A stretch of DNA of 45,008 bases from Nemertoderma westbladi (taxonomy: Eukaryota > Animalia > Xenacoelomorpha), in NCBI GenBank assembly GCA_032718475.1, contig JAUCBJ010006308.1, positions 1-45,008 on the forward strand. The letters are read 5' to 3'. A program made the position numbers and the translations under genes. Positions within the stretch are counted from its first letter, which is position 1; every line of letters starts with the position of its first letter. A model generated the notes under the pieces. The model saw nothing but the letters and a program-made list of their open reading frames with translations, made no database searches and was not told the origin of the DNA. Below are positions 9,611 to 45,008 of the stretch, piece by piece.

Positions 9611-11087
9611 ATATCTGAATATGGATGTAGGGTTAGGTTAGGACAGTAGGAGGTTACGTAGCAGTGCACTAGCAACACATCCCACTCTACAGCTCTATTT
9701 GAAATTATTCTAGGACCTATAGGTTTAAAAAGATTGAAAAATGTCCGCTTGCTTCGCTCGCGTTTATAGTCAGTTAGTGTAGGGCTCCTCTTAGCACTGT
9801 CTGGCTGTGGACAAATGGAAACAGACAGATTGAGCATGACCATTAAAAACATGACTTGTTTCAAAAGTTTTTCAATTGTCAGATTCTTCAAACCAATAAA
9901 ACCATGACAGCCTGCATGATTCAGCAGAATTTTCGTGCTCGCTACGCTCGCATCTTGTGTCTTGATCACATCTGCATTTAAAAACAGTCCGTTGACGTTG
10001 ACCTACTAGCTACTACTGCAACTACAGCACTATCTGACTATTACTGTCAGACTGTATTTATGTTTAACATAATTGGAAAATTTCCTTGCTCGCTACGCTC
10101 GCATTTTAATGTTAAAATACTGTAGGGCTACAGCATTATAAATTATATTATTGATAAATTATTAAAATTAAGCAATTACTGCAAAATTTCATAGTCAATT
10201 GTTGGCTTGGCGGGGGCGCGCATTAGATGTCATGGCTGGCGCGATTTTCGTTTAACCAGATCGCGTGTGGCGCGCTTTTTGTCAGTATTCCATATAGATG
10301 AGGGAAAGGAGCAGGTTACTGGTTAGGTTACGGGCTTTTCTAACCAATACAATAAACGGCCACTTTACCAATTGAGGGCTGGAGGGAAAGGAGCAGGTTA
10401 CTGGTTAAAGAGGCGGGCTTTTCTAGAACCAAAACAATAAAAGATCACTTTACCAAGGTGGGTCTACCGAAACCGATTTTAGCCGATAGGCTTATTAAAC
10501 ATAATGCAGTAATGTGTATGCCTATATAATTACCCTATTTATTTAATCCAGTAATCTGTTAATTCCTGCAGGTAACATTTGAGGCACAGTGGTTAAGAAA
10601 TTTTTTTATTGATTCCCCTATGCCCGTGCGTGGCGAACCACTTGTACTTTTTTCAAACTTTGATGATTCCCCTATGCCCGTGGCGAACCACTTATACTAC
10701 TGTACTATTTTCAAAAGTTTATTGATTCAGCTATGTCCAGATGTTCATGGTAATAGTACCGGAAGTAATAATAACAATACTTGATTAGCATACATCTGTA
10801 CATTGCACTGTAATATTGCATATAATTACCTAATTAACTAAAACTGCTAATTAATTATTAATAAATGCCACAAACTGCAAATTGATTTATTATTGTACAA
10901 AATGCCACAATTCCTAAAAATATGCACTGTAATACACTAAATACAGTAATATAATAATTGCTTAATAATAACTTGACTTAAAAAAAACGTACTAAAAAAT
11001 GATCGATTAATTTTATAAATTACATAACTAACTAAAAAACTATTATTAAAAATGTATTAATTATTAATTACATGAATAATACTTAGT

Positions 11088-13205
11088 TTAATTTTCGTTT
11101 AATCGCATTTAATTCTCATTTTGGTTCAATTGGCCCAACGCTAGAAAAGGCTATACCGATATCCAACCGGTCCCCAACAAGATATATAAATAATAAACAC
11201 CCAAAATCATTTTCACTAATCGGTACTTGTACCGCTGAGATCTCCCTTTTTATTCTAGAATTGGACAACTCCTGCTCAACCAATGACAATTTCCCACTAA
11301 AATTAGTAAAATTAGCTGTTAAACAAATTGCACCTCGATTAGCCGCGCTTATAAATTTATCCATTGACCAGGGTTTCTTCCCAGATGCCCTAAAGTGTGC
11401 AAAAATTATCCCCGTTTACAAAAATGGTGACCCTTTTGATGTAAACAATTATAGACCTATATCCATTTTGCCAGTTTTCAGTAAATTGTATGAACGTCTC
11501 ATAAATAACCAATTATTATCATATCTGGACAAATTCTCCCACCTCTCTGAATCACAGCACGGCTTCCGTAAAAAAAGGTCCACTACAGACGCGATATTAA
11601 TTACCACAGAAAAAATAAGGAACTGTCTCGATAATCACAACACTGCTTGTCTCATCAGTCTGGACCTTAAAAAAGCGTTCGATACGCTTAACCATAATAT
11701 TTTGTTGAAAAAATTAGAATCATACGGTATCAGGGGTCTCCCGTTAAAACTAATTGCTGACTATCTAAAGGATCGGCAGCATGTAGTTAGTATTAATAAC
11801 GTCCTGTCAGATCCTTTAATCTTGCTTTGCGGTATTCCACAAGGGTCCCTAATCTCCCCTACTTTGTTTTTAATATATATAAACGACCTTCCCAACTCCA
11901 CAAAATTAATCACCACTCTTTTTGCAGACGATACCACACTTCTCCACTTTGATAGAAATCCACATAGGTTGATACAAACAGTAAATGATGAATTAAAGAA
12001 TATTGACCAATGGTTAATAGACAATAGGTTATCCTTAAATCTCACAAAAACAGAATATATTTTTATCTCCAGTACTTATGACAACCATCCAACAACTCAT
12101 CCAATCAAAATCCGTGACCAACTTATAAAAATGAAACCATCTACTAAATTTTTAGGAACATTAATCGATAATAAATTATCTTGGAAACCACACTGTGACT
12201 ATATCCTGTCAAAAATATCTAAAACTATAGGAATTTTTTATAAATTGCGATACATATTTCCTTTAAATATACTTAGACTTCTTTACTACTCCCTGCTATA
12301 TCCTTATATATCCTATGGAATAATTCTCTGGGGAAATACATGCAAAAAATATTTAAATCCAATCCAAATAAAAATAAATAAGGTCATCCGCGCTATAACA
12401 TTCAACCACTACCAGGCACACGCCGCCCCTATCTATAAGTCCCTACATATCCTTCCTCTAGATCTACTATACAAACAAGAAGTAGCAAAATTCATGTTTT
12501 CAATACATCATGGCAACAAACCAGTAGCATTAAAATCTTTATTTCAAAAATCCTCGCAAATACACGAACATTACACTCGATCTAGCTCGCGAGGAAACTA
12601 CTTTATTCCATCTACAAGATTAGTAGTTGCACAAAAATCAATACACTATGACGGGTCAATAGTATGGAATAACCTTCCCCAAAATATTAAATTACAAAAA
12701 TCTCGAAGCAGTTTTATAAAGTACCTAAAAAATCACCTCTTCTCACTGCTTGATCGTATTTAAAACTCCGAAAACTAGTTTTCCCAAAAAATTTATTCTT
12801 ATCTAAATTGTTATTATTTAAATAATTATTTCCCCATAATTTACTTATTATTCGCGCATAATTTCATAACTAGATGTTAGTAACTATAATTTGTAAGCAT
12901 CTATGATTCGGTGAAAGCCCATCGTCCTCATTTCGTGTTCGCCGTCGCCCTTCATGTCTCTGATTAGTAAATCCACCCCTTGCCCCCCCCCCCCCCCTAT
13001 ATTCCCCACTACATCTTCCTCCTGTCATCTACCGTTATAATTACATCTAAAATTACATTAATACCGAAATATTTACATTTCATCACCTGTTATAATTTGG
13101 CCGCACTAGCTCTGTAGAGCTATGGCCTAGTCTAAACTGTGCTATGGTTTGTGCTTACGTGAGAAATGTAAAAAAATGTAAATTAAATTGAATTGAAAAA
13201 AAAAA
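11088..13205 (+). mobile_element. 5'-truncated CR1/L2-group LINE retrotransposon
   Basis: Uninterrupted RT frame, a 3'UTR, an AATTG-repeat plus poly(A) tail at ~13181-13205, and a 7-bp target-site duplication ACTTAGT (11081-11087 and 13206-13212). No endonuclease domain is present. Confidence 0.9.
11105..12763 (+). CDS. LINE ORF2 reverse transcriptase (N-terminally truncated, no start codon)
   Basis: Motifs NYRPISILPVFSKLYE, QHGFR, LDLKKAFDT, GIPQGSLISPTLFLIYIND, FADDT, KFLG. The frame stays open upstream of the track ORF (AFNSHFGSIGPTL from 11105). Confidence 0.92.
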   Translation, partial: AFNSHFGSIGPTLEKAIPISNRSPTRYINNKHPKSFSLIGTCTAEISLFILELDNSCSTNDNFPLKLVKLAVKQIAPRLAALINLSIDQGFFPDALKCAKIIPVYKNGDPFDVNNYRPISILPVFSKLYERLINNQLLSYLDKFSHLSESQHGFRKKRSTTDAILITTEKIRNCLDNHNTACLISLDLKKAFDTLNHNILLKKLESYGIRGLPLKLIADYLKDRQHVVSINNVLSDPLILLCGIPQGSLISPTLFLIYINDLPNSTKLITTLFADDTTLLHFDRNPHRLIQTVNDELKNIDQWLIDNRLSLNLTKTEYIFISSTYDNHPTTHPIKIRDQLIKMKPSTKFLGTLIDNKLSWKPHCDYILSKISKTIGIFYKLRYIFPLNILRLLYYSLLYPYISYGIILWGNTCKKYLNPIQIKINKVIRAITFNHYQAHAAPIYKSLHILPLDLLYKQEVAKFMFSIHHGNKPVALKSLFQKSSQIHEHYTRSSSRGNYFIPSTRLVVAQKSIHYDGSIVWNNLPQNIKLQKSRSSFIKYLKNHLFSLLDRI

Positions 13206-14984: not shown

Positions 14985-15745
14985 GCTGTCCTCAGCTCCG
15001 ATGTGCACTGCGGTACGTGTACACTCGCAGTAGTGTTCCTTAGCAGTTGCAGGGGAACCGCACATCCAACACACGCATTCATCTGAGGGTCTCCAGCAGT
15101 TTGTTTTTGTACATATTCGGTGGTGGCAGCCGTTCGATATAAGCAGCGCGGCAGAGCGACGATTGGTTAGTCCAGTCAGGTATATTCCAGAATCCAGGGG
15201 GTTATCAATTGCATTGAGGATCGCTGTTGTTGATGAGAACTTGCTAATTCCACACCACAACTTCCAGTAAAAAGCCCGAACGCGGCGAATATGGTCCAGT
15301 TGTGTGATTTCACTGTGGTGTGCGAATATGCTACAGCCATAGGATGTTGATGGCAGTATGATAGATTGTCATATACGTTTTGCTGATTCGATCGATATTA
15401 TACGCATATTCACCTTGGTAGCGATCATTACACAATTGGAGACTTCTTTTGAATATAAATGATCGAAATGGCCACGTGCACCATTTTTAGTAGATAGAAT
15501 AACCCCCAGGTATTGGAAAGTATTCTGGAATTCAATTGATTGGCCGTTGTATTCTAGAACATCATTACGTGATAATCTACTGATCTACCTCCCTTGCGGA
15601 ACTTTACTGCTTTGGTTTTATCGAGATTTACCTGGAGCCCATTCGTTTTACAATAATCTGCCAATTTATTTAAGCTGATTTGTACGTCTGCGATTGTGTC
15701 ACCAACAATAACAAGGTCATCAGCATACATAAAAAGGCATATATA
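14985..15745 (-). mobile_element. Decayed LINE RT 3' fragment
   Basis: LFMYADDLVIVGDT...LADYCKTNGLQVNLDKTKAVKFRKGGR (YADD catalytic motif), followed by an FQYLGV-like segment and stops or frameshifts. Confidence 0.8.
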
Positions 15746-16701
15746 AAATAAACAAGTTAAGCTGTAGGCATTAATTACGGTAATTAATTTAAATTTCACT
15801 ATAAGGATGAAGAATAGTTGCAGTGTAACTGGTGGAATATCGCCGGAAACACCTTTTTCAAACACTTGTAGCTAAAGATTGAAAGCAAAAATAAAAATTC
15901 TGGCTCACCCAGGGCTGCACGGAGGAGGAGGGAGGTGAAACTATCTACAGATTTATGTTTCAAATCCGATCCGATCCAACCCTCCCTTGCAATTAGCAAC
16001 TTAATTTTTCACATTCACAACTTAGATTGTTCGCAATGCGAACGTGGCAAACTTCTTACAGCAATTTCATGTTTACAGGGAGCAACTTCATCGGCAACCC
16101 GAGTTTTTCACCAAGTTGCTGAGAAAGTTACTCAAATGGTTGTCACGTGTAAACCGGTCTTAAGATTACATTTGCATTGTAATGTTGAAGTAATGAAATG
16201 CAGTACCGGACCGGTATAAATAATTGAAGCATTACAATTATTACAAAATTGTATGGCCATTGTATTTTAATATGGCGCGCATATGGCATAACACAAACAT
16301 ACATACAGACAGACATGACTTGTGCGCTTTTCACTTAATCTGAAGTCTGAACCCGTGTGGGTGTTGCGCGCTTTTTGTCAGTATTCCAAGCAGGGGCCCT
16401 GCCCTACATCCTACAACAAACTGTACAATATTTAACAAATTGGTTCAAAAACACAAATATTTACCATTTCCGTAGTCTGTTAGTTATAGTTTTCGGCTCA
16501 ACTTATATATTTTATAAAAACTCTGCTGCTGGTTTAAAATGTTACCGGTACATTATATATTAAAGCTATATAAATTTAATTAGGCAACTAATAGACCCAA
16601 GTACTGTAGAGTTGAGCACAGTGGCAGCAGATAATGGTATTGACAGATGGGAGGCCATGAGGAGGTAAATTGCGGACATAGCAGGCCTATCTTTTACCTG
16701 A

Positions 16702-16772: not shown

Positions 16773-17059
16773 ATTGCCGACTTTGCAAAAGCTGTCCCCA
16801 ACAAAAAGTTATATAATACTAGGCCTTCTAGACATAGACATGTAATTAATATTTACATTACATCTTTGTGGGACTTCGCGCAGCACCAAATCTAGATGAG
16901 GCAAGCAGTACAATTCGTGTACCTGTTCAATACCCCTAGCGGTCGACATAGGAACTATAGAAGTTAATTAATGGCAGGGGGATGACACAGGCACACCCTA
17001 CGTTAAACTAGTATTACATTACAAGATCACACTAATTTATACTTTTTTATCTATTTCAG

Positions 17060-17128
17060 CTGGCGCTCTGTCCAACTATATATATATACTTCTACTACCG
17101 TACCGGTACCTACTGGATAACGATTTGG
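17060..17128 (+). other. Putative non-coding 5'UTR exon of the + strand DDX5/17-like gene
   Basis: Pyrimidine tract with TTTCAG acceptor before 17060, TGG|GTGAGT donor at 17129, no ATG inside. Predicted from splice signals only. Confidence 0.5.
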
Positions 17129-17507
17129 GTGAGTGTGATTTACAGTCGGTACTTAATTAATTAATTATCGTTAACAATTCTGATGTTTTAAGTTTTGATT
17201 TTTGCGGTGATAATAAAGGCTGATTACGCTTTTGGTGTTGGTTTCGATATTTTGAATATATAATATTACAGATACCGGTATTTTTCTAGGGATTTGATCT
17301 AAGCCTGTAGTATTTTTCTTAAATTTTATATAAAATTTAAACTTCAGATTGAGATTTAAACTTTAATTCCAAAATTATAAATTTACTATACACTTGTACT
17401 ACGTTTATATGTAGGATAATTTTATATAATAATTATAATCTATATATAAATGTTGCGTACCGGTATTTATTTATCCATTTCTAATATATATATGTCATAT
17501 GTTGCAG

Positions 17508-17736
17508 GGCTCAGTTTGAACCGGTCCACCCAATCTGGTTCGAATATGGGTCAGGCGAGGAGACGTAAATTACCCAGGCACCATTGCATTGCCATGGAAA
17601 CTGGGGAAACTTGCGTCCCAAACATAGTATGGCCACCTTGATGGAGGCTATTCGAGTCATAGGTATAGGCCCTAACACGTTTTTGGCAGCAAAAAAACGC
17701 AAAGCCGTGGCTTTGGTGTTGTATATTATATTAAAG
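17508..17736 (+). promoter_or_regulatory. Putative uORF-containing 5'UTR cassette exon (copy A) with 5' hairpin and long-range pairing arm
   Basis: TTGCAG acceptor, AAG|GTACGT donor at 17737 (weaker alternative TAG|GTATAG at 17663), 4 ATGs, uORF 17546-17641; homologous to 34565-34332. Confidence 0.65.
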
Positions 17737-17895
17737 GTACGTTGAGTTGCTTATTAATTAAAATTATATATTAGAAGTTGAACGCCGGGAAGTATTTGTA
17801 ACATAACCATGTTTGTTTAATATCTGAGTACCTGACTGCGTGTCCTAGTATGTATGTAAGGTGGGGGTGTGTGTATGTATGTGTATATAGGTGGT

Positions 17896-18186
17896 ATATG
17901 TGACGTGTGTTGTGTGTGTAGTAGGTGCTATAATATGTGACGTGTGTTGTGTGTGTAGTAGGTGCTATAATATGTGACGTGTGTTGTGTGTGTAGTAGGT
18001 GCTATAATATGTGACGTGTGTTGTGTGTGTAGTAGGTGCTATAATATGTGACGTGTGTTGTGTGTGTAGTGGGTGCTATAATATGTGACGTGTGTTGTGT
18101 GTGTAGTAGGTGCTATAATATGTGACGTGTGTTGTGTGTGTAGTAGGTGCTATAATATGTGACGTGTGTTGTGTGTGTAGTAGGTA
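17896..18186. repeat. Tandem array, 37-bp unit, about 8 copies
   Basis: TATGTGACGTGTGTTGTGTGTGTAGTAGGTGCTATAA repeated with period 37. Confidence 0.95.
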
Positions 18187-19703
18187 TTGTGTTCGCGGTA
18201 TTAGGAACTGATACCTCGGGGACTTAATATCACAGTGTTGCAATGGGATCGGGATTACAACAGTAGGGATCGGGATTTCCCTTGTCAGGATTTGTAATTT
18301 TATTGCGGCCATACTCATCCAAAAATCTCATGTACTAATATGTATTGTATATATGTATATCGAGTATCGTATATGTAATAGCATCTACTTCAATCCGAAT
18401 GAATCGCTGCCACATAAAAATGTTTATCATATTCAATAAAATGCAACAAGTGTCCGTTATATTATTTATAATAGACATTTAGACATTCATGTATATATAT
18501 TTGATACATTAAGGGCACGTGTTTGTATTAAAATAAATTGGACTATTAAGTTTATGGACCTCTTCTGAGGAATTGGTTCAAAAAATTTGAAATTTGTGGG
18601 GGAACTAATTTTGCATGTGTCTCAGTCATGGTAGCAGAATAAATACAAAAAATTATTTCTATCACCAGAAATTTTCAAAGTGAAAAATGTAAAAAAAAAG
18701 TATTTTTGTCGTTTTTAGTGATGTAACTTTTGAAATTTCTAACTTATTCTATTATTATTCTAATTTCTTTGAAAGAAGTTTTCCTGGTCGCAGAATCATT
18801 TTGAGTGTCAGTTTTAACATTTGACGACTTCCAAATTGTCTGTATGGCTGTCGGTTATATTTGACGGGACAGACTCACACGCTAAATTTGAATACTAACA
18901 TCAGAAATGAAGTCACCGACCCCGAAAACCCATATACGGAATTTTTTAGAAATATAGTATGCTTTTTATTGACGGACAGACCGGTGATTCAGAAATCAGT
19001 TATAAATCATGTAAATCAATCAATCTGTCACAAATCATCTTATCAATCATCCAATGAAAATCCTCCAAAATTACTGCAGTCGAAGTCCGTATCGGAATCT
19101 TAATTAGAGCTCTCACTTTACTTAACCAAATCGGAGTCTGATCAAGTCGGAATCAAATCGGAGCTTCCCACTAAGGTAGCACTATAGGTGATTGTAAAAG
19201 CAAAACCGTTATCTATTCTTTTACTTTATTATTCATTATTTATGTTTTTGTTATTGGAAGAAATTGTACATTTCTTTACAATTCTACAAATTTTATGCTG
19301 CAGGGTATATAATATAAATTCAGATATAGCAAATCCCGATAAATCCAGTGTAGATCCATTAATGTACTTTATTACTAAATTTAGGTTTTGGTTTGGTTTG
19401 TTATTACATAAGAGGCCTTCATTGATTTAATATTTTGTTACTCTTACTTTTAAGTACTAATTCATTGCGATAGGTACGGTATTGGATAAGTTTACTTTAC
19501 CTTCATGTACGTACGGTCTCACCCCCAATGACCCATGCCTACCGGTACCGGTATATAGGGATATTTATTTATGTGTGGATTTTTATGATTTATGATTGGT
19601 ACCGGTACATTATTATGAGTGGATATTGTGTGTGTCAACTAAAAATTGTACTTAACCCACTAGTCTACTTCACCCAGTAATCTTCCCAATGCCGCCAATT
19701 TCG

Positions 19704-19775
19704 GCCATGGCTTTTGTTTTCATTCCAGGGGGAATGCCACTGCTGTCATTGTGTGCCCTAGGGCCTGTCCTATGA
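19704..19775 (+). promoter_or_regulatory. Intronic complementary element (copy A), pairs with 17657-17711
   Basis: GCCATGGCTTT...TGCTGTCA..GTGT....TAGGGCCTGTCCTATGA is the near reverse complement of 17657-17711 and is homologous to 31991-31915. Confidence 0.7.
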
Positions 19776-20301
19776 TAAACTACAAGTTCAAATTCTCAAT
19801 AGTAACTAAACAATACGTGAGGGGGGGGGGGGGGGGGGGGGGTAATATAAGTTGCGTAATGTGGAAGCCTGGTTCAAAATTCACTGATGCCTTATATTAT
19901 AACTCCGTTATATTATAACTAAGTCGGACAACAATAGGTTATTGTTAGTTCCTCTTAACTAAACAGAAAAAAAGGCCCCATTTCTTCCGCATATTATCGG
20001 AAAGGCTGACACCAAACTAGCTACAATAACGCCTATAACGGTCATCAATATTACGGAAAATAATTGCACCAATTGGTATTGTGCCCCATTTCCTTTACCT
20101 ATAAGTATTTAAGATTTATTACTTACCGGTCAAACGTGAATTAATTATATATACTCTCCAATTAGCAAAATCTGTTGTTATTATAATATTAAATTTAGTT
20201 ACTTTCCATTATTGTGGAATGTAAAGTAACACTTTACTATTTGTTTGTCTGCAGCTCAACAAACCTAAGTTCATCCTATCTATCTTCTACACCCGAGCTA
20301 A

Positions 20302-21951
<1,650 letters not shown>

Positions 21952-23503
21952 TATTACCTCACTATCACAGTCTTTGTCTATAAACTGCGATCCGAGATGT
22001 CGGCGTAATGATGTTAGCTCCGCACGTCTACCTACATACAAACTGGTCTTAATTATATCTGAGGTAGAAGATATATACCCTCAAGTTTGAGATTATTTAT
22101 ATTTACTACAATGTAACACTCTTGTATGACTGTCAGTCTGTCAGGTCGCAGTCTATTAATTTGTTGTCGTATTATTCTAACCCTTATACGTAACAGCTAA
22201 CGTGTTATGAGTGAGTGACACCCATTTTATTAAGTATAAACCCAATTTGAGTCTTTTACACTCTTCAAATATTAGGTAACTATTTTTAAGCAACATTGTA
22301 GGACTTCACTTAACCTATAGAATATAGTTTATAAATTATTAGGTTTACTAATTCAAACAATATTTAAGTAACCCGCTGTTTTCGTAACAACTGCAAGTAA
22401 CCTATATGCTTATTGTTGCTCACTTACTTTCTTTGCTAGATATTATCAGTGTTTGTGGACTGGACAGGAACATGGTGTAACATTGTAATGTAACATTTAG
22501 GTTTGTCGGTTATTTTTGATAAAATGGGTGTCTTTATATCCTCGTTTGATCCTGTTTTTACTTTGTTTCTAAACAGATTGTATTAAAGGCAGTTACCAAT
22601 TGGTGCTGTTCAATATTCTACCAGCCTCTTTTACTTCAAGTTTTCACTGATTTTAATTTCTTGTAGCTGATATTTGGCACCAGTGCAATGTATTACTCAA
22701 TGCACGTATGTTGTTTTATGTTACTGGAAATTGCATAAGTGACCTAAATAGTTTTTAAATATTTATTTATTTACATTGGGAGCGGGGCGGGGCCTGGTCA
22801 ATTTTTGGGTTTCACGAAACTTTAATATTTAGTTTCCGCATCTTTGTATCAGCTGTTTCAATCCGCTATAAATAAGGGGGGGGGGGGTCGCATTCTGGCT
22901 TTTCGCAAACCTAAAACAAAGTTATGTAATCTGTGATATTGACTTTCGTTTATTGTTAATTCTCCGACATGGTGTGTGTGGGTTGGGAGAGCAGAAAGTG
23001 ATATCATACCATCCCGGTATGTAATTTTAATGTAGCTGTGTGTGTACCGTACACGGCAGAACGGTGCATCGGTACTACAGCTAGGTATTGACATAATTTG
23101 TGTTTTATCATTAATATTGTGGGCGACTCTATTTGTCAGAAAATATTAAATCTTTTCTTATGCCGATGACGATGTAGGCCTAGTAATGATATTTGAATTT
23201 TATTAAATTAATTTACCCTGTTAATGACTAAAGGGGACACAAAAATAATAATATCATTTTTAAGAACATGTCAAAGAAATCCAATCAAAAATAATCAAGC
23301 GACCCAATATTTTGTGGAATAAATTATATCAGATATAAGCCGACTGCAGTGTGGTAATAAGATAAAGTCAAACATACTGCACCAACCCAACACTCTCCAC
23401 AGATGATGTTGTATCTTGTATGCTACCGAATCAGTCATGGTACAGTAACTGGAGGACTTCTGATATGGTAAATAATAACATAAATAAGGGGTGTAAACGT
23501 TAC

Positions 23504-23795
23504 ACTGGTGCAGACAGTGGTGCAGACAATGATGCAGATAGTGGTGCAGACTCCTGGTGCAGACAGTGGTGCAGACACTGGTGCGGACAGTGGTGCAGAC
23601 AGTGGTGCAGACACTGGTGCAGATAGTGGTGCAGACAGTGGTGCAGACAGTGGTGCAGACAATGATGCAGATAGTGGTGCAGACTCCTGGTGCAGACAGT
23701 GGTGCAGACACTGGTGCGGACAGTGGTGCAGACAGTGGTGCAGACACTGGTGCAGACAGTGGTGCAGGCACTGGTGCAGACACTAGTGCAGACAG
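23504..23795. repeat. 12-bp unit array (GTGCAGACAGTG), left arm
   Basis: Visible array; an inverted counterpart lies at 26116-26268. Confidence 0.9.
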
Positions 23796-24044
23796 TAAAG
23801 GAGCAGGTTAGTAAAGGATCAGGTTTCAGAGGAGTATTGGGGGAACCAAAACAATAAACGTTATTGTTTTGCGGGCAAAGAATACCCACGGGCTAAGAAT
23901 ACTCGCGGGCTAAGAATTCCTGAGACCTTACTGTAGTTAGTGCATGTATATCCCCAGCATGAGACAATAACTTAATTAGCTCGTTTTATTATAATAAGCA
24001 CTGGCTCCAGTAAAGGTAAACAAATTAAAAATACTCTGTATAAA

Positions 24045-25807
24045 GGTGATTGGGGGACGTTAGTGCCCGCGGGCACTAATGTCTCAGGACTTTAGTGCTC
24101 GCGAGTCGTTAGTGCCCGGGAACCATGTCTGCAAGTGAGACGTTAGTTCCCGCGAGTCATTAGTGCCCGGGAACCATGTCTGCAAGTGAGACGTTAGTGC
24201 CCGCGAGTCATTAATGCCCGAGGACCTTGTCTGCAAGTGAGACGTTAGTACCCGCGAGTCATTAGTGCCCGAGGACCTTGTCTGCAAGTGAGACGTTAGT
24301 GCCCGCGAGTCATTAGTGCCCGAGGACCTTGTCTGCAAGTGAGACGTTAGTACCCGCGAGTCATTAGTGCCCGAGGACCTTGTCTGCAAGTGAGACGTTA
24401 GTGCCCGCGTGTCATTAGTGCCCGAGGACCTTGTCTGCAAGTGAGACGTTAGTGCCCGCGAGTCATTAATGCCCGAGGACCTTGTCTGCAAGTGAGACGT
24501 TAGTACCCGCGAGTCATTAGTGCCCGAGGACCTTGTCTGCAAGTGAGACGTTAGTGCCCGCGTGTCATTAGTGCCCGAGGACCTTGTCTGCAAGTGAGAC
24601 GTTAGTGCCCGCGAGTCAATAGTGCCCGAGGACCTTGTCTGCAAGTGAGACGTTAGTGCCCGCGAGTCATTAGTGCCCGAGGACCTTGTCTGCAAGTGAG
24701 ACGTTAGTGCCCGCGAGTCATTAGTGCCCGAGGACCTTGTCTGCAAGTGAGACGTTAGTGCCCGCGAGTCATTAGTGCCCGAGGACATTGTCTGCAAGTG
24801 AGACGTTAGTGCCCGCGAGTCATTAGTGCCCGAGGACCCCTTGTCTGCAAGTGAGACGTTAGTGCCCGCGAGTCATTAGTGCCCGAGGACCTTGTCTGCA
24901 AGTGAGACGTTAGTGCCCGCGAGTCATTAATGCCCGAGGACCTTGTCTGCAAGTGAGACGTTAGTACCCGCGAGTCATTAGTGTCCGAGGACCTTGTCTG
25001 CAAGTGAGACGTTAGTGCCCGCGAGTCATTAGTGCCCGCATTGTATTTGGAAGTTAGTATAAGGCAATCCGTATTTCTTCTTACTTATACCCCATTCAAC
25101 CAAAGTCGTCCATTAACATACACTAATTTAATTAATTCCCTAATTTAATTAACTAAAAGTACTACTCTACTTTTAAATCGTCGACAGAATGTCAGACAGT
25201 CGACTGAGTATTTTCCTTGAAATCATTAATTCATTATAATATATTAGTTAGTGCGACCTCCGACGATTATACTGTATAGTACTGCACCTTGTTTTACACA
25301 CTGTCTCCAGTAAAGTTCAACAAATTAAGTATAAACTCAATCAAAAGTAGGCTATCTATAAACAATCAAACACTGTTGCTTAATCCTCATTCCTTGAAAA
25401 CTTTACCGAAAAACCAAATAATATAATTGATACCATGTCTAACTGAGGTTAATATATTTTTTAATCATAAACGATCCAAGTTGAAATTCATATGTTAAAT
25501 AACGAGATGCGGGAACTAAAGACTGGAAAATTACCTTAGAAGTTTGAAGAAAGTAACGACTCGTTTGCATCGGCAGGAACTAAAGAAGCGGGAAATGTCT
25601 TCCTGGCTTCTAGTATTTATTACATATACTAAATAAGTAGCTAGGCGGGCACTAATGTCTCGCGGGCACTAACGTCTCGCGGGCACTAACGTCCCTTGGG
25701 ACATTAGTGCCCGCGATAATGCGACTAAGTGACCGCGGGCACTAAAGGTACTGAGATATTAGTGCCCGCGGGCACTAATGTCTCGCGGGCACTAACGTCC
25801 CAAGACC
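24045..25807. mobile_element. Non-autonomous TIR element (GG...CC ends) carrying a 51-bp tandem array
   Basis: Left GGTGATTGGGGGACGTTAGTGCCCGCG versus right CGCGGGCACTAACGTCCCAAGACC. TGTATAAA occurs at 24037-24044 and 25813-25820 as a probable 8-bp TSD (5 extra bases on the right). Confidence 0.7.
24090..25040. repeat. Tandem array, 51-bp unit, about 18-19 copies
   Basis: GTTAGTGCCCGCGAGTCATTAGTGCCCGAGGACCTTGTCTGCAAGTGAGAC repeated head to tail without spacers. Confidence 0.96.
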
Positions 25808-26115
25808 GGTCATGTATAAACAATCAAACACTGTCGCTTAAACCTAATTCCTTTGAGACATTGCTGCTTAGAATTTATATACATTTATTGTTTATATAAA
25901 AACGGGAATACCGATTAATTACTTTCGTACACACTCCTTATAATTATTTGTAATCAGAGGGCACATTCACCCCCACGCACCCCGACTTGTACTACATACT
26001 TCCTCTCTACTGCATGTAGAACCTTTCAAGAGTTACTCGCATATTTGTAGTTAATATAATAGTGCCTGGTGGTATTGTGTTTTGTGGTACTCTGGTATTT
26101 GAGTATTTTCACCAT

Positions 26116-26268
26116 GTGTCTGCACCAGTGTCGGCAGCACTGTCTGCAGCAGTGTCTGCACTACTGTCTGCACCACTGTCTACACCACTGTCTGCCCCAG
26201 TGTCTGCACCACTGTCTACACGGGTGTCTGCATCACTGTCTGCACCACTGTTCTGCACCACTGTCTGC
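26116..26268. repeat. 12-bp unit array (CACTGTCTGCAC), right arm, inverted relative to 23504-23795
   Basis: Reverse complement of the left-arm unit. Confidence 0.85.
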
Positions 26269-26545
26269 CCCGGAATATGTAAGTTTTGCCAAAACTTAAC
26301 AAGAGATCTGGGCACTCCCAATCAAGTTCCTTACGCATTCATTCCAAATCAACCTTAATTGAGTGCCACCAATTAATTCTTCTTAAATATTTATGTGTGA
26401 CAAAAGTAAGAATTTGGAAATATCATAATCGAAAATAACAAAATTAGTTGTATTCAATATCCGGTATTATTAGACTCAAGTCAAAGTTTGGCACCATAAA
26501 ATTTAATTAAATAAATAAAACATACAATTATTATTGTATTCAATA

Positions 26546-27941
26546 ATGAGTTCAACTAAACCTGAAGCTCCGTTTTTCCGCAAGGAAACTCCATTAAAGT
26601 TGAGCTACCTCCATCGCCCGAGTTCCAAACCGTTTCTGCGGAAAACACTGGGAAGTCTCCTCCAATCTCGGGCAATAGAATCCCGCGACGAGGTCGCCTT
26701 TGTGTTCCATGAAGAAGATGAACCTTAACCTTCGGTGAAATCTTTGAGGAAGTCGAGAAGGTAGCTAGTGGTTTCGTCGAGTTGGGTTTAAAACGCGGTG
26801 ATAGGATAGGAATCTATGGCGTGAACTCCCGCCAGTTGATGGTGGGGACCTACGCCGCCGCACGGGCGGGTCTGGTTACGGTTAACGTGAATCCTGCATT
26901 CACTCCCTTGGAATTGCGGCAGACACTCAGCAAGGCTGGAGTCAGTGCTCTGCTGGCAGACTCCGGCGTCCGACACATAAAGTACTACGACCTGCTATGT
27001 ATGGCCCTACCCGAACTGTCCAGCTCGAAACCTGGAAATTTAGAGTCAGAATTTATTCCGAGTCTTCGTCATATTATATTCATGGATGAAATATCTCGTC
27101 CGGGTTGCCATACCTACAAAGCGATTAAAAAAATCGGTGGCTCGGCATCACGTGATCAAGTTCTTCAACTGCAAACTGTGATCGAGCCAGACGATATTTT
27201 AGTGATGATGTTTACTTCTGGAACGACCGGGAACCCCAAAGTGGTTCCAGCTTCCCACCGGTCATAGTATTATTGAATCCGCGGCTAATGGCGGGAATGC
27301 GATTGGTTCTAGCACTTCTAGGCATCCTATTTCTATTTCATTCCCTATGCCATTTTTCCATGTTTCAGCTTATATTATCGCGATTATTGGTTCTGTGGTC
27401 AATGAATGGAAGATTGTCGTACCTTCACGGCTGTTCGATGCAAATAAAACCTTAGAAATGCATAGAGAAGCACAAGTGCAATGTTGTCGGGGCGGTTCCT
27501 TTTATGTTAGTCGATGTCATGAAAATTTATCAAAACTACGATTTGACTTCCCTAAAGAGCTGTGTGGTTGGTGGCATGTCCATTCCTGAAAAAATATATT
27601 CCGATGTCGCTGATAAATTAGAATTAAAATCGCCTTTACGGGCTTATGGCATGAGCGAAATCGGGATTGTGATCGCTGGTGATTGGCGATATTCCAAGGA
27701 GATGTTGCTGCATAATGACGGTTATCTCATGGAGGGGTTGGAGGTTAAAATAACTGGAGAGAACGGGGAAATTGTGTCGGTAAACACCGTCGGCGAGATC
27801 TGTTTCAGAGGTCATTGTGTGTTTCAAGGTTACTTGGAGAATGAAGAAAAGACAAAGGAATTGATGAAATCCAATGGGTGGTTTAAAACCGGGGACTTGG
27901 GGACCATGGATGAGAATGGGTACATTAACATTGTGGGTCGG
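26546..27941 (+). pseudogene. ACSF2: ACSF2-like acyl-CoA synthetase (AMP-binding) pseudogene, intronless, 3'-truncated
   Basis: LSYLH..., LTFGEIFEEVEKVASGFVELGLKRGDRIG, VNVNPAF, FTSGTTGNPK, MPFFH, AYGMSE, GEICFRG, GWFKTGDLG, IVGR. Frame breaks near 26725, 27265 and 27460; similarity stops after IVGR, so the C-terminal domain is missing. Confidence 0.88.
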
Positions 27942-30147
27942 ATACAATACGGTGCGGTTGTCACTGGAAGAGGTAAAGTCTTTACAGTTGACACTTTTAC
28001 ACTTTCTACACAACAAACGCGTGCCTAATATTTTGAATACTTATATAGATAATTTGATTTTAATGTAGGTGTGTAAACGATATGCAGACAACAGACAATT
28101 GACAGTCGACAAACACTGTCGACAACCTTAATTATGAACAAAAATAAAACTGGAACCTGTGATCTTAACTTTCGTTTATTGTTTTGGTTCGAATACTGCA
28201 AGTCACCACTGTCTCTATATATCGGTTGTCTGCTGTCGGTAAGTCTGCTTTGCATGAGATAATTGTTGCTAGTCACACATGTCAGGGTTTAACTAATAAG
28301 CTGATTTGTAATTTGTTAAATAAATAGTACAGTATAATTTTTTGCTGCTTTAATTGCTAGTGTGTAACTATAACTTGTCAACATTTTGATTATAATAATT
28401 TATATCTGTAGCTTTATATTTATATATAAAGTTATAAAAATTATTGAATGTATTAATCATAACGACATTTTTCGAAATTACAAAAAATTTGGATTGTACA
28501 TGCACAATGAATGAATGTACTGTTGTTGTTTGTACAGTATGCCCAAGCCCATGCCCAAGGACTACTTCAGTAGTCCTTGAGTATGCCGAAAGAGATCTTT
28601 TAATAGGGAAATGACGTCTAAGATACCCGCAAACAGTACAAAAAAAGTTGAATTTGTAGCTAGCTTTCAAATTAGAGCCCTTGAAGTCCTTCCTACCTTG
28701 GCTGAGTTCATTTAATATAAAACATTAAGGGAAAGGAGCAGGTTGCAGTGTCGGTGTTTTCTAACAAAGACATTATAAACAAAACTTTATTTCATATCAT
28801 TCTGCCTTGCGTCCTTAAGTGGTAGCTAAATGACTCACCACACTGCCTACCGGTAGTCAGGTGACTAGATGTGCTATAAACCAACCACAACCACTCACCA
28901 TGGTATAGAGCATGAGTTGGGGTTATAGTCCGAGAAGCATAGTTCTAGAAGGAAAATGTTGAGGAGTAAAAAGTGAGTCGAATAGTTAACGTAATATTTT
29001 TTGCTCGTAATAAATGCTATACATTTAAAACACCATATTCCTATAAGAATAACTACCAAGCGCATGATACATATTGCTACACATTCAAAACGAATTAATT
29101 CAATACAAAGGAAAGCCTATGGCTACGGTAGAGCTAACTAAACTATAAAACCAGACTTGAACTTTAAAAACTCGAAACACAACCTGACAAGAATTGCCCG
29201 AAATTATGTATTGCTGCATTAATAAAAGAACAACAATGTACTGCGCTAATATAATTGTAATTAATGTGCAATACTAATAATGTATCGATCATAATTTCCA
29301 CTCAATATTATAACATCAACAAGGTAATAAAACATGATAATATACTTTATTTTAACGTATATCCAATATTTCCCCGCATACAATATATGATAAAACAAAA
29401 ATCTTGCGTGGGTGGGTAGCTAGCTGCGTGCGAAAGCAATAAATGTACAAAATTTTCACGAAAAAGAATGAAGAACGCACAATACTATTGTACAAAAAAT
29501 AGTGATGCTGAGATACTGTATAACAAACGAATATAATTGTGTAGGCGATACGATATTATTATCACACACAATAGTGACTGATTCTCAACAACATAGGCTA
29601 AATCAGTGCCCCTGTCATATTTCGTGTTCTATGGGAGCTATTTACACTTGAATGATTGTAAAGTAGTAAATTAGAGTGATGATAAGAGTGGTTTGTTTCA
29701 CGAACGAAGATTGTGAGTGAGTTAAATAAAGCAAAAAAGTTTGTAAAAAGTAGTTTGGATAGTTAAGTGGCGCTTAGGTCAATAATTGCTTATTCCCTTT
29801 GCATCATTCATTGAAATATGAAAGCTGTGGGACATGCAATGAACGATTTGTTAGGGTTAATTTTGTATCAGAGCATTTTAATATAGTTAGTCTTAAAGGA
29901 TTATTGGATACAATAGTTTCGAAATTCTACAGTTTGCACAATTTTGTAGAGAATCAGCCATAAACATGTTTATAAAACAGCACAGCACAAAAACGACAGT
30001 ATCTATACCCCAATACGCCGTCCATCACAAAGAGTATAACCGGAAATTAATTAAATATCAGTTGATAAAACAAAAATGAAGTTATCAGCTTCTCCAACAA
30101 ACCAAAAGTCATCAGTAACAATTCAGTTGATAACAAAGTATTTATAT

Positions 30148-31743
<1,596 letters not shown>

Positions 31744-31914
31744 TCAACACGGGTACTGTACTTAAACAGCGGCAGACTCAGCTCAAGTTCTTCAACCTAA
31801 GAGGAAACATTACAAGTCATAACATGACTAAGTGACTTCCTATCTATAAATAGAACAATAAAATCCAGCAAACGTAATATATTGTTAGAGATAGTTAGAA
31901 AATATTTTTAACTT

Positions 31915-31991
31915 GTAGGACAGGCCCTATTGCACAAAATGGCAGCAGTTAAAAAATACCTTTTGTTTCTTTATTGAAAATAAGCCATGAC
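31915..31991 (-). promoter_or_regulatory. Intronic complementary element (copy B), pairs with 34403-34351
   Basis: Transcript sense GTCATGGCTT...TGCTGCCA....GTG..ATAGGGCCTGTCCTAC is complementary to GTAG.GATAGGCCCTATCAC.....TGGCAGCA...AAGCCATGAT. Confidence 0.7.
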
Positions 31992-32141
31992 ATATAAATA
32001 TATAAACAACATACCGAATAGGAGCTCATGCTCATTCTGATAACATTAACAACTCACACAGAAATCCTACGTCCACTCCACACTGAATACCATTGGGCTA
32101 ATACCAATTCATATTATATATATAGCCAAGTATATTCTATA

Positions 32142-32966
32142 TAGTGCTGCGAACTGAAACAATATTTCACTAGTTTCAGTTCGAATAAACCTATTTATTT
32201 CAGTTCCAGTTGCAGTTCCAGTTTCCAAAAAAAAAAATAGTTTCAGTATCAGTTCTAGTTTCAGTTTGAATGAGGCTGTTTATTTAAGTTCCAGTTTCGG
32301 TTCCAGTTCCTGAAAAAAATAGTTTCAGTTTCAATTCAAGTTTCATAACAATACTACGTAATCACCAATGGCCTGAATTAGCAACATTTGCACTCGCTCA
32401 TTTGGCATTTTCTGGCGCTGGAATCGGTGTGGAGCGTTTGTTTTCTGGCGCTGATATACAATCAGATGGGCGGCTTCGTTCAGTATCCAATACTGCACTC
32501 CGCCAGAGGACCCTAATTGCCTCAAACAAAAACCTTGTCGAACATATTGATTAAAGTTTTAACTTTTCAGAAATTCACAACTTATCCTTGATTTAGTTTT
32601 ATAGTTATATACTTAGTTTTACTTGTTGTTTATACTTTATGTAGTTTCCAAATCAACAAAAACTGGTTTTGATATAAGTGAAATATCTTTTGTTTTTTTT
32701 ATTCCCGGGGGGGGGGGGGGGGGGTGGGGGGGGGGGGCAATATTGTAATATATGTTTACATTTATTTTCAATTTATTACTTTCAGTTTTCAATTTTGAGG
32801 AATTCAGTTCTAGTTCCAGTTCTAGTATTTCAATATATCACGTTTCAGTTCTAGTTTCAGTTTAAGTTTAAAAACATTTTAAGTTTCAGTTCCAGTTCCA
32901 GTTCAGAAAAAATGCCAAAAACAATTTCAAGTTCCAGTTCAGTTTCAGTTTCAGTTCGCAGCACTA
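32142..32966 (+). mobile_element. Internally deleted hAT transposon with transposase C-terminal remnant
   Basis: 19-bp TIR TAGTGCTGCGAACTGAAAC, 8-bp TSD ATTCTATA/ATTGTATA, TTCAG subterminal repeats. 32369-32554 reads WPELATFALAHLAFSGAGIGVERLFSGADIQSDGRLRSVSNTALRQRTLIASNKNLVEHID*, with the ERxFS signature of the hAT dimerisation domain. Confidence 0.88.
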
Positions 32967-32987
32967 ATTGTATATACCGGTACACAT

Positions 32988-33180
32988 GGTACGCAGCAAA
33001 CTTTGCTTGCGAGAAAGCTTCGCCTGTGTTTTGTTAGAAAAAGCCGACTCTGTAACCTGCTCCTTTCCCTAATTTGTTACTAAAATGGTTAATAACACAA
33101 ATCTTATTGGGCGAAGGTTGCTCGCGGGCAAAGATTTGAAGCGGGCGAAGGTTGTACGCGGGCGAAGATGGCACCCAACC
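32988..33180. mobile_element. Short GG...CC element (~190 bp) containing the 68-bp module; second copy at 42913-43101
   Basis: CAGCAAACTT...GAGAAAGCTTCGCC, 68-bp module, CGGGCGAAGGTTG repeats, GCACCCAACC end; flanks GTACACAT/GTACAGAT (7 of 8 match). Confidence 0.7.
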
Positions 33181-33551
33181 GTACAGATACCGTCAAATTG
33201 GTACCACAGTAGACATACCCCAGACAGACCCCACCCGAATCCATATCTTACTAAATTATATTGGGGGGTGAGGGGAGTATATCAAGTTCTCACTTCACTC
33301 AGTAATTAGATAAAAAGTAAGAGTTCATATCATATGGATAGTTGGAACTAAATTTATTAACTCGCGCGCGCACCTTGCAGGAAATGAAAGTTTTTACATC
33401 ATAGTCTCACTGATTTATTAGGTTGTCGTACCAGCACTGAAATACAATAAGTACTAATTTAGTATATCTATCTACTCCACTCAACTGCTTATAATAATAT
33501 ACAACAACTTAGTGACCGCTGGTTACAAAAACAGAATGACATAAAAATAAA

Positions 33552-33815
33552 GTTGTTATTGTTAATGGTCAATACGATGAGTATGAGCTCCAACTATGAC
33601 ATCACATATACAACAGTGCAGGGGCGCGAAGTAAAATACATCAAATGAACATGGATTGCAGTACTTATTTATCATAAATTCTGGTTGTTATTGTTAATGG
33701 TCAATACGATGAGTATGAGCTCCAACTATGACATCACATATACAACAGTGCAGGGGCGCGAAGTAAAATACATCAAATGAACATGGATTGCAGTACTTAT
33801 TTATCATAAATTCTG
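33552..33815. repeat. Exact tandem duplication, 132 bp x 2
   Basis: 33552-33683 is repeated at 33684-33815. Confidence 0.92.
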
Positions 33816-34331
33816 GTATGAGGTAGGAAATATAAAGGCAAGTCACCAGAGATCCCCCGCCTATTGATATTCGATGCAAAATAACCAAAATCTGGCCTGC
33901 AATTTCTCCTACTACATAAAAAAATATGCTTAATAATATAATTTGACGTCATGAAGTCAGTATAATAATTAAAAGAACTAATATTTAGCCCTGTAAAGCA
34001 TTAAGTAGATTGTAGACACCGAGGGGTAAGTAAATCTACCTAGTTGAAACAACTCAATCGAAATAAATGCCCCTTTTAAACTCCCTTCCGAGCTCGCTTG
34101 ACTCAGTACATATTCTTTTTAGAGCACTGCACTGCATGTATACATTAAATCATAATTATATATATACCGGTAGTCAAAAAAAAAATATATATATATCCCT
34201 ACTGATTGGCAATTCGTTTTGAAATAATTATTACTGTATTAAAACCAGATATATAACTAATGATTTACTAAACTTTTCCTATCAGGTCAATATTTTGTCA
34301 AGATATGTACTCATTTATACATAAAACTTAC

Positions 34332-34565
34332 CAATATTTTCCATTTTCAAATCATGGCTTTGGGTTTATTTGCTGCCAAAAACGTGATAGGGCCTATCTC
34401 TACCTATAATACACCATACACAGCATCCTCGTGGAATGCCATCTATTTAGATACATTTTACTCCAGACGCAACAGCCAGTTTTACAATTACCAGCCGTGT
34501 GTCCGTAAATATGTCTTCTTGTGACCCATATTCGAACCAGTATCGATGCCGGTTCAAACTGAGTC
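34332..34565 (-). promoter_or_regulatory. Putative uORF-containing 5'UTR cassette exon (copy B)
   Basis: Long pyrimidine tract and TTCCAG acceptor, TTG|GTAAGT donor at 34331 (weaker alternative TAG|GTAGAG at 34403), 7 ATGs, uORF 34529-34488 (MGHKKTYLRTHGW*). Upstream donor ACG|GTAAGG at 34860. Confidence 0.65.
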
Positions 34566-35912
34566 CTGGAAGATATGAGAAAAACAATATTAGGAAGATG
34601 GGTAGGTAGGGGTAGTAGGATAAGTAGGGGTAGACCTAGCACTATAATAATTTCTAGTAGGGGGCCCATAAAACTGAACTGACCAGTGCTTGTCCTTTCT
34701 GCCTTTAACCATGGCTACATGATGACAGACCACTAAATATATTCTGCCAAATTGCAAAAATTTAAAAATAGAACCAAAATTCAAACGAACAATCGAGTTA
34801 AACAGTTAAAAGTGATTGAAAGTGCAGTTAAGTTTGCTACCGGTACAAGGTTACCTTACCGTCACATCACAACAATCAGACAGTAGCAGTCTGGCAGTTA
34901 GCAGTCAGGTAAGGCAGTTGGACTTGGAATGGAACAAGGAACTGACCTGACAGACTGACTGCTGGACTGAAGACTGCAGGACTGTATGGTCTACAGGTCT
35001 ATGGCTGTATGGCATGCTGGTATCTGGCAGTCTGTGGTCTGGCGTCTGGCTGTATGGTATCGCTATCCAGCTATCGGTATCTGGGTATGTACACTGTACA
35101 GACAACTGCAAACTGAGACAAGCAAGCCATGTAGGCCTAACTCCAGAACTCAGTCTGTCAGTAACTGGTAACTGCAATAGCTGATAGCATACTGGCATAG
35201 ACTGATAGAGCTGTAGAGTTAGTGTTATTTAGATACTGTCATAGACTGATAGAGCGCCTTTCTGCTCTTGCGTTGGCAACGGGCAGACGGCAGACGGGGA
35301 TATTTGACAGTAGAATGAATACAGGCAGACAGGAATAGGCCTACCTGAATACTGACTGGCTGGGTTTGCGTACCTGTCTTTTTAAGATTTGTAGACTACC
35401 GGACCGGCAGGCAGCAGGGCCGGTACAGATTCGTCGATTAGGCTATACCAGTACAGCAGTATACAGGTATACCGACCGACCAGCTGACAGACTGACCAAA
35501 CGGTACGGGCAGACGGGTAGGCCTTCACTTCAATTCCTTGGCAGCTTGGTACCTGGGTATGGTTGATGGTACCGCGGTTACTATACTTCAGATCAGAACT
35601 TGAGTCAGCTACAGTGTCTGACAATCTGAGTGTAGACTGGACTGCAGCACTGCATCAGCCAGTCAGCACTGACAGCTTGACTGGCTTGTTTGAGCCTTCT
35701 TTGATCTTGTCGACTTGGGACTTTGTGAAGCTGATCCTCTCCTTATTGCAGTATTGTGCTGTTGTTATTGTAGGCTTATCTTCTCTTCAGTCTTCACACA
35801 CCACTCGGTCTGCAGGTCTGACAGTTTTGTCTACCGGTACCGTAGCGCGTAGCGGTAGTGCAACTTATGCAAGTTTCCTGAACTGAACTCTCAAATACAT
35901 TGTTGCTGTCTT

Positions 35913-44525: not shown

Positions 44526-44724
44526 TTTACCGAAATATAATGCATTATAATAAATTTGCATGAAAATAGATTTAGTTTAAAATACATTATTAATCTAATA
44601 ACTGGCTGACTGGTGCCTATCAGTACTAATTCCATTGATTAAATGATTAAAATGAATATGATTGAAATGAAGGAAAATGAAAATGAAATGAAAATGAAGG
44701 AAAATGATTAACTTATGTTTGTAG

Positions 44725-44933
44725 GATCCAGGCCATGGTGTGTCGAAGCAGCTGGTGCCGCTTACCAAGAGTTACTCCGCAGACATTACTCCTTACTTAA
44801 CGGCAATGACGATTCAGACAACCTGGACGATGACGATACTTCCTCATCATCTGATGAAGTAGATGATGACGATGAGTCATATGTGATCTTTAATGATGAC
44901 TATCTTATGAAGCTTGACCCTGTGGATTGGAAG
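44725..44933 (+). CDS. DNAJC2: DNAJC2 (MPP11/zuotin) coding exon 2; gene continues beyond the window
   Basis: VEAAGAAY, an acidic stretch and YLMKLDPVDWK match the zuotin-homology N-terminus (VEPVG...LKTLDPKDWK) that precedes the J domain; TTTGTAG acceptor and AAG|GTAGAT donor. Confidence 0.85.
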
Positions 44934-45008
44934 GTAGATTATATCTTGGGGTTAATTCTGACACTGGCAACGCTTCTCTGTGAGATACATTTTCAACTTA
45001 ATTAGAAT

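Follow-up and report, generated by a model that had tools for sequence, protein, structure and literature searches.

How might a helicase gene whose coding region holds no intron keep its own expression in check? The question is raised by the 45,008-nt contig JAUCBJ010006308.1 of Nemertoderma westbladi (assembly GCA_032718475.1), referred to as the window, in which two convergent paralogous genes for DEAD-box helicases of the DDX5/DDX17/Dbp2 type are each preceded by a structured RNA element. Gene A (20323-21951, forward strand) is a single intronless open reading frame of 542 amino acids with RGG-rich ends, and its paralog, gene B (30148-31737, reverse strand), is a single intronless frame of 529 amino acids. 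An earlier note on this DNA had proposed that a long-range exon-intron RNA duplex, conserved with compensatory changes, lies upstream of both genes and might be opened by the encoded helicase itself. Our analysis locates this duplex in both genes, adds a hairpin at a cryptic splice acceptor, and places the two structures in an intron of the 5' untranslated region (5' UTR), which is observed for gene B and probable for gene A. With modest confidence, we lean towards a helicase-sensing, unproductive-splicing switch in this intron that limits the helicase's own expression.

The duplex is real in both paralogs. In gene A, the 5' arm lies at 17656-17712 and the 3' arm at 19703-19776 (forward strand), the latter about 480 nt upstream of the putative final acceptor. 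In gene B, the arms lie at 34351-34398 and 31919-31991 (reverse strand), the 3' arm being about 120 nt upstream of the acceptor in use. All four were recovered both with RNAduplex and by folding the whole intron, at the places given in the earlier note. When compared with 1000 shuffles of each 3' arm, the A duplex presents -67.5 kcal/mol against a shuffled mean of -34.5 (z -7.3), and the B duplex -58.6 kcal/mol against -25.4 (z -8.1). None of the 1000 shuffles was as good in either case. When 4492 tiles covering both strands of the window were scanned, the best partners of each 5' arm, the antisense of the two 5' arms aside, were the two 3' arms, while the best unrelated tiles scored -48.7 and -49.1. 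The sense strand also pairs better than the antisense strand, with -67.5 versus -53.3 for A and -58.6 versus -54.3 for B.

Given that local structures compete with long-range ones, each intron was also folded at once over 3.3-3.7 kb. The minimum free energy structures contain the same four helices in both genes. Their pair probabilities, which are equilibrium predictions and do not describe co-transcriptional folding, are 0.85-1.0 for H1, H3 and H4, and 0.65-0.99 for H2, the lowest values (0.65-0.80) belonging to the 4-bp helix of A. The helices are wobble-rich, with 4-11 bp between bulges, and the duplex loops out 2.0-2.4 kb holding unrelated repeats. Two details of the earlier description change. 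The 4-bp helix read as ACAC with GTGT exists, yet its register is CACG with UGUG, identical in both copies. The outer helix of B, GTAG with CTAC, is complementary as claimed, yet it is missing from the minimum free energy structure of the B intron.

Conservation between the copies follows the pairing. Among the 32 pairs common to both duplexes, 28 are identical, three have a change on one side, one has a change on both sides and none is broken; with the hairpin included, the counts over 49 common pairs are 44, four, one and zero. The substitutions listed in the earlier note are correct: a G-C to A-U change (17710/19705 in A versus 34352/31990 in B), a G.U to A-U and a G.U to G-C. A C-G to U.G change adds to them. 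At 34351, two DNA runs have C and not T (minus strand), by which a U.G pair becomes C-G. Pairing is kept throughout, yet a single change is doubly compensatory and the covariation evidence is thin. With paired and unpaired classes taken from A's own fold, A and B agree at 129 of 158 paired positions (82%) and at 117 of 199 unpaired ones (59%; Fisher p 3.5e-6), and unrelated intron pieces reach 52 +/- 3% identity with the same aligner. As judged from these alignments, the way conservation tracks pairing is a stronger argument than the single double change.

The arms are also rare. In two DNA runs, the arms have a depth of about 19-34 versus 15-25, equal to their own copy together with one further single-copy locus, whereas a true repeat in the B intron, a copy of a 68-nt unit, reaches about 5000-7700 times single-copy depth. 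Given that run depth tests for copies at least 85% alike, the arms are not the ends of a multicopy element at that likeness. The earlier note had named a multicopy transposon as fatal to its proposal. Transposon terminal inverted repeats were rejected as a candidate on the same depths. Only two copies of the element exist within the window, and no exact match to the 5' arm turned up among the metagenome contigs searched. We conclude that the feature is real and selected.

Whether the element belongs to the helicase transcripts was assessed at the B locus in assembled contigs, which drop rare forms, of four sequencing runs, here called X1, X2, X4 and X5. The contigs of X4 and X5, which come from two studies, join position 35374 to 31796, splicing out a 3577-nt GT-AG intron (31797-35373, reverse strand) that contains the hairpin and both arms. 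The joint is absent from X1 and X2, which cover the B locus at even depth. X1 and X5 are one sample, and since the GT-AG joint is present in X4 and X5 yet missing from same-sample X1, these two runs, labelled "DNA?", appear to be RNA. That the joint comes from a processed pseudogene was rejected because X1, the DNA run of the same sample, lacks the joint. A third paralog behind a divergent X5 contig was likewise rejected, given that 10 of its 11 listed letters match copy A.

The earlier claim that the region is part of the helicase pre-mRNA is thereby borne out for gene B. Given that both B arms lie inside the intron that is spliced out, the duplex is intron-intron in the main B mRNA, and its description as exon-intron does not hold there. 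The covered 5' UTR of the spliced mRNA (227 + 59 nt) is free of any AUG. A 132-nt tandem duplication within this intron (33552-33683 of the window) is missing from DNA runs X1 and X2, and is either an allele or an assembly artefact. For gene A, the sequence and the analogy to B suggest a putative intron at 17129-20254 (forward strand); its donor, TGG/GTGAGT (the slash marks the exon-intron boundary), is a candidate only, and its acceptor would be at 20254.

A second structure, overlooked by the earlier note, lies about 105-125 nt upstream of the 5' arm in both genes. In gene A, a branch-point-like CTAAT and a CAG cryptic acceptor (17481-17507, forward strand) are followed, from the first base past the acceptor, by a 17-bp hairpin (17508-17552; fold z -4.1). 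In gene B, the CTAAT and CAG occupy 34566-34593 (reverse strand) and the hairpin 34523-34565 (fold z -4.9), with 16 of the 17 pairs as in A. The loops, of 10 nt in A and 8 nt in B, have diverged. CTAAT is found at about -24 from the CAG in both copies. The acceptor of A is preceded by an AG-free zone of 91 nt, the longest gap among the 128 AG sites of the putative A intron; that of B spans 68 nt, about 6% of AG gaps reaching 60 nt, and the pyrimidine score of the B acceptor (10/12) is the highest among 121 YAG sites. In both copies, the lower stem holds a second CAG, paired across from a bulged A (17546 in A) that is the first base of an AUG whose -3 position is A and whose +4 position is G.

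Together with a donor downstream, each cryptic acceptor delimits a candidate cassette exon. In gene A it would comprise 229 nt (17508-17736, forward strand) with four upstream AUGs, ending at the donor AAG/GTACGT at 17737; in gene B it would comprise 234 nt (34332-34565, reverse strand) with seven, ending at TTG/GTAAGT at 34331. The A donor matches eight of nine consensus positions, the best of 271 GT sites. The B donor matches seven and is among the top 11 of 223 GT sites, a score that B's used donor shares. Both donors lie just inside the duplex loop, 20-26 nt past the last common helix, so the strong looped-out donor of the earlier note is found at near-equal positions in both copies. The AG/GTA donor that the duplex was said to cover fares differently: it matches five of nine consensus positions in both copies and shifts by 4 nt between them relative to the helix, for which reasons it was rejected. 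The hairpin at the cryptic acceptor is more telling than this site. CTAAT, the long AG-free zones, the strong donors and the exon lengths are all kept independently of pairing. The first upstream open reading frames (uORFs) stop ahead of the last exon junction, by 95 nt in A and 156 nt in B, and their peptides are not conserved between A and B.

Evidence on the element in RNA comes from the same contigs. The form of B that skips the candidate exon is the one present in both studies, X4 and X5. In addition, X1, X2 and X4 each have one contig matching the B hairpin and 5' arm with other sequence between them, whose simplest source is copy A. The depth of this contig in X4 is 12.9, versus about 200 for the A coding region as estimated by subtraction. 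On the hairpin side it matches 57 nt, as in the DNA runs, which by bin arithmetic reaches 13 nt upstream of the exon start. Given that the X4 contig is unspliced through the acceptor, A's element would be in RNA as a retained intron or a nascent transcript, if X4 is RNA; its presence there is likely, on indirect and weak evidence. The X4 and X5 contigs do not cover B's own element, and X4 has no cover where the 3' arm of A appears to cross-map in the DNA runs; as contigs drop rare forms, neither gap was used as evidence.

These observations are consistent with the following mechanism, whose steps beyond folding (exposure by the helicase, exon use, the effect of the uORFs and decay) are proposed. 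When folded, the 17-bp hairpin would block recognition of the cryptic acceptor, while the duplex would tie up the 3' third of the exon and keep its donor inside the 2.0-2.4-kb loop, away from the final acceptor. The whole intron would then be removed, leaving a 5' UTR without AUG. High DDX5 activity would melt the short, wobble-rich helices, with 4-11 bp between bulges, upon which the cryptic sites would be used or the intron partly retained, and the mRNA would gain four to seven upstream AUGs. The uORFs would lower translation, and their stop positions would fit the rule for nonsense-mediated decay. Since an intronless coding sequence cannot form an ordinary in-frame poison exon, this would account for the placement of the switch within the 5' UTR. 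The negative feedback suggested by the earlier note has a published precedent in a plant DDX5 homolog, whereas feedback by the present helicase is only proposed.

Several points weigh against such a switch. Any AT-rich stretch of 230 nt would carry several AUGs. The comparison involves two sequences with one double change, which is not statistical covariation. The pyrimidine tract of the A acceptor is mediocre (7/12, with 28 of 77 YAG sites scoring as well), and the first AG is mostly unpaired in the predicted fold, flush with the stem base, unlike in the plant motif discussed below. The effect of the duplex on the donor may run either way, repressing or promoting its use. No contig of the four runs includes the exon or uses a cryptic site, bearing in mind that contigs drop rare forms, and the sole RNA-like contig across the element reads through the acceptor unspliced, as either a retained intron or plain pre-mRNA would.

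Other explanations of the same locus were weighed. The structures could regulate splicing or expression through the same exon and answer another signal, such as elongation rate, temperature or another RNA-binding protein, or they could be static insulators that silence a cryptic exon. All the structural and splice-signal evidence fits these possibilities equally well, and the BRD2/BRD3 structures respond to transcription slowdown (PMC10789245). However, the host genes are helicases with a record of autoregulation, and splice sites that served only a silent cryptic exon would more simply be lost, yet both paralogs keep them; we regard this explanation as unlikely. A further step down in probability is the duplex as an RNA bridge that promotes splicing, either by shortening a transposon-swollen intron or by bringing the internal donor near the final acceptor, with unwinding leading to retention. 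The unrelated repeats looped out, the duplex end so close to the B acceptor and the unspliced RNA-like contig all agree with a bridge, as does the help that zipper stems give to the splicing of long yeast introns (PMC12350175). Still, the linker is about 970 nt from B's used donor, far above the total of 42-85 nt to donor and branch point that the same paper gives for zipper stems, and a bridge explains neither the hairpin at the acceptor nor the second set of splice signals. It can also coexist with helicase sensing.

The remaining explanations are improbable. The hairpin could be a microRNA precursor that overlaps a splice site, with the duplex a separate element: mammalian DDX5 hosts intronic microRNAs, both strands of the stem are conserved around a diverged loop, with 19 identical nt on the 3' strand, and the fold covers about 60 nt once flanking pairs are counted. 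Against this, the common stem has only 17 bp, B is without the lower stem, no Rfam microRNA matches at E<=1, and the stem begins exactly at an acceptor with a branch-point-like motif, leaving a small chance for a microRNA. The chance is equally small that the duplex is an ADAR editing-complementary element of the pre-mRNA, as the earlier note had allowed. Its layout is that of such elements, a long imperfect duplex within one molecule that joins a candidate exon to an intronic arm far away, yet it contains no coding sequence, its helices are short, and inspection revealed no conserved arm adenosine at which editing would create or destroy a splice site. Least probable of all is neutral similarity, in which gene conversion between A and B would have kept relics of an inverted repeat or of transposon ends similar. 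The coding core has clearly been homogenised in this way, with identical runs of 128-169 nt; in the element, however, identical stretches are patchy and coincide with pairing, the arms form interrupted complements rich in wobble pairs instead of a clean inverted repeat, their depth is unlike that of the true repeat, and only two copies lie in the window.

The assignment of the host proteins to the DDX5/DDX17/Dbp2 subfamily agrees across domains, best matches and tree position. Both contain DEAD and Helicase_C domains (Pfam), and their closest database matches are of the DDX5/DDX17/Dbp2 type, with identities of at most about 69%. In two FastTree trees, built with no other DEAD-box subfamily as outgroup, the A/B pair is the sister of a group with named ascidian DDX5 proteins (local support 92 and 95), on a long branch; taken by itself, this position would make a tunicate relative a likely source, though not an established one. 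Of 580 confirmed loci from a protein search, 80 were kept, and among the 37 near-full-length ones placed on the tree none groups with the window proteins. Two-sequence profile hidden Markov models of the hairpin and both arms gave no match better than E 2 over the 80 loci. Rfam presents no match at gathering score in the window, and one chance-level match (E 0.54) within 17000-20400, outside the element. In two genomic loci used for comparison, the RGLD motif is directly followed by a 2-kb intron, at what we take to be the conserved DBP2/p68 intron position; the window genes have none there.

The coding sequences of A and B share 89.5% nucleotide identity, unevenly distributed. Their cores (20500-21800 and 30350-31300 of the window) are 93-100% identical, whereas 28 of 37 and 14 of 29 four-fold sites differ within the first 150 codons and 14 of 37 differ at the end, so that the ends are near saturation, unlike the homogenised core. 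Given this strong divergence outside the core, the duplication is old, and the sequences point to a later, recent homogenisation of the core by gene conversion between the inverted neighbours. In the N-terminal glycine/tyrosine repeat of gene B (31646-31666), run X4 is without 21 nt, an in-frame length polymorphism. A DDX5 protein of the ascidian clade (P0100, 568 amino acids) is on record from assemblies with contigs of up to 24 kb, which hints that an intronless DDX5 coding region may be common to tunicates. The ascidian p68 gene (Molgula "bobcat") reportedly has a non-coding first exon spliced to the coding region, which the literature search did not confirm.

The rest of the window contains other features. 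Between the helicases lies an AMP-binding (acyl-CoA synthetase-like) gene (26519-28040, forward strand), intron-poor in appearance and split over several frames, which may be a pseudogene or reflect assembly indels or short introns. A tandem array of the 68-nt unit occupies the window start (13-1060), and dispersed copies lie at 33010-33180 and 42973-43101. Reverse-transcriptase frames (RVT_1) at 11087-12763 (forward) and 15554-15871 (reverse) are probably from retrotransposons of the long interspersed nuclear element type. Two inverted arrays of 12-nt units (23478-23803 and 26105-26268), 2.4 kb apart, enclose a 51-nt tandem array (23986-25154). A short acidic frame at 44712-45005 (forward), with no Pfam match, ends in a DP-DWK-like motif, presumably that of zuotin/DNAJC2 proteins.

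What is new here is a candidate sensor made of two parts and housed in a 5' UTR intron, in animal DDX5 genes without coding introns. The literature covered (titles and abstract openings, outside subscription papers) returned no description of the element or of an animal 5' UTR version, and within it the RNA structure behind DDX5/Dbp2 intron autoregulation is defined in plants only. A bolder evolutionary account, which we offer tentatively and hold to be somewhat short of probable, is that an animal lineage lost all DDX5 coding introns, the ancient autoregulatory intron among them, and re-established the feedback as a two-lock sensor in the 5' UTR, converging on the DEAD switch of plants. The two locks would be the acceptor hairpin, with its bulged start-codon A, and the kilobase-spanning duplex over the donor, together gating a uORF decoy exon. 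If true, structure-based self-sensing would be a recurring need of this helicase family, whichever intron carries it. The locus is compact and open to mutation, an animal candidate in which defined pairs can be broken and restored. It tests whether helicase self-sensing is re-invented in genes that no longer have the usual regulatory intron, and whether a poison exon can be replaced by a uORF exon of the 5' UTR.

Several known systems offer a comparison. With yeast zipper stems (PMC12350175) it shares the pairing of distant parts of one long intron, while its linker from B's used donor lies outside their range. Long-range complementary pairs repress the poison exons BRD2 exon 3b and BRD3 exon 5b (PMC10789245), and the present case is similar in that paralogs carry long-range intramolecular pairing and an unproductive exon would be kept skipped. 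However, both arms are intronic there and flank the whole exon, an arrangement not found in the window, where the 5' arm is inside the candidate exon and only the donor is looped out; moreover, the BRD2 and BRD3 structures arose independently, whereas the present element is common by descent. Intron-mediated autoregulation is reported for yeast DBP2 and human p68 (Barta and Iggo 1995, as cited in PMC1920232 and PMC12311795). The helicase subfamily is the same and negative self-control of this kind is proposed here as well, although their intron is in the coding region and the window genes have no coding intron.

The nearest counterpart is the plant DEAD motif. In DRH1, whose closest human homolog is DDX5, and in RH46, a hairpin of 19-20 bp in a long intron conceals an alternative acceptor; helicase activity is required to open it, as helicase-impaired mutants shift much less, and compensatory mutants restore the wild-type pattern (bioRxiv 10.64898/2026.01.23.701338). 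As in plants, the host is a DDX5-subfamily helicase with a paralog, the intron being observed for B and suggested for A, and the long intron contains a long hairpin, placed at a candidate alternative acceptor and bearing a bulge next to a stem AG. The fully spliced form is again the main product, and the alternatives (cassette, alternative 3' site, retention) would be non-productive. The differences are also clear. When the consensus of the plant motif (DRH1/RH14 and RH46), taken as the alignment in the supplement of PMC12218528, was compared by eye, it was not matched, only YAG being in common. The stem here has 17 bp and a loop of 8-10 nt, versus a loop of 3-5 nt on the longer plant stem, and the best acceptor abuts the stem, whereas the plant acceptor is paired within it; the second CAG, paired in the lower stem opposite the bulge, may be the site used instead. 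Moreover, the host belongs to the animals and its intron interrupts the 5' UTR; uORFs, in place of an in-frame stop, would be the cost, and a 32-bp long-range duplex is added on the donor side. The element is not a member of the plant DEAD motif, though it likely works alike.

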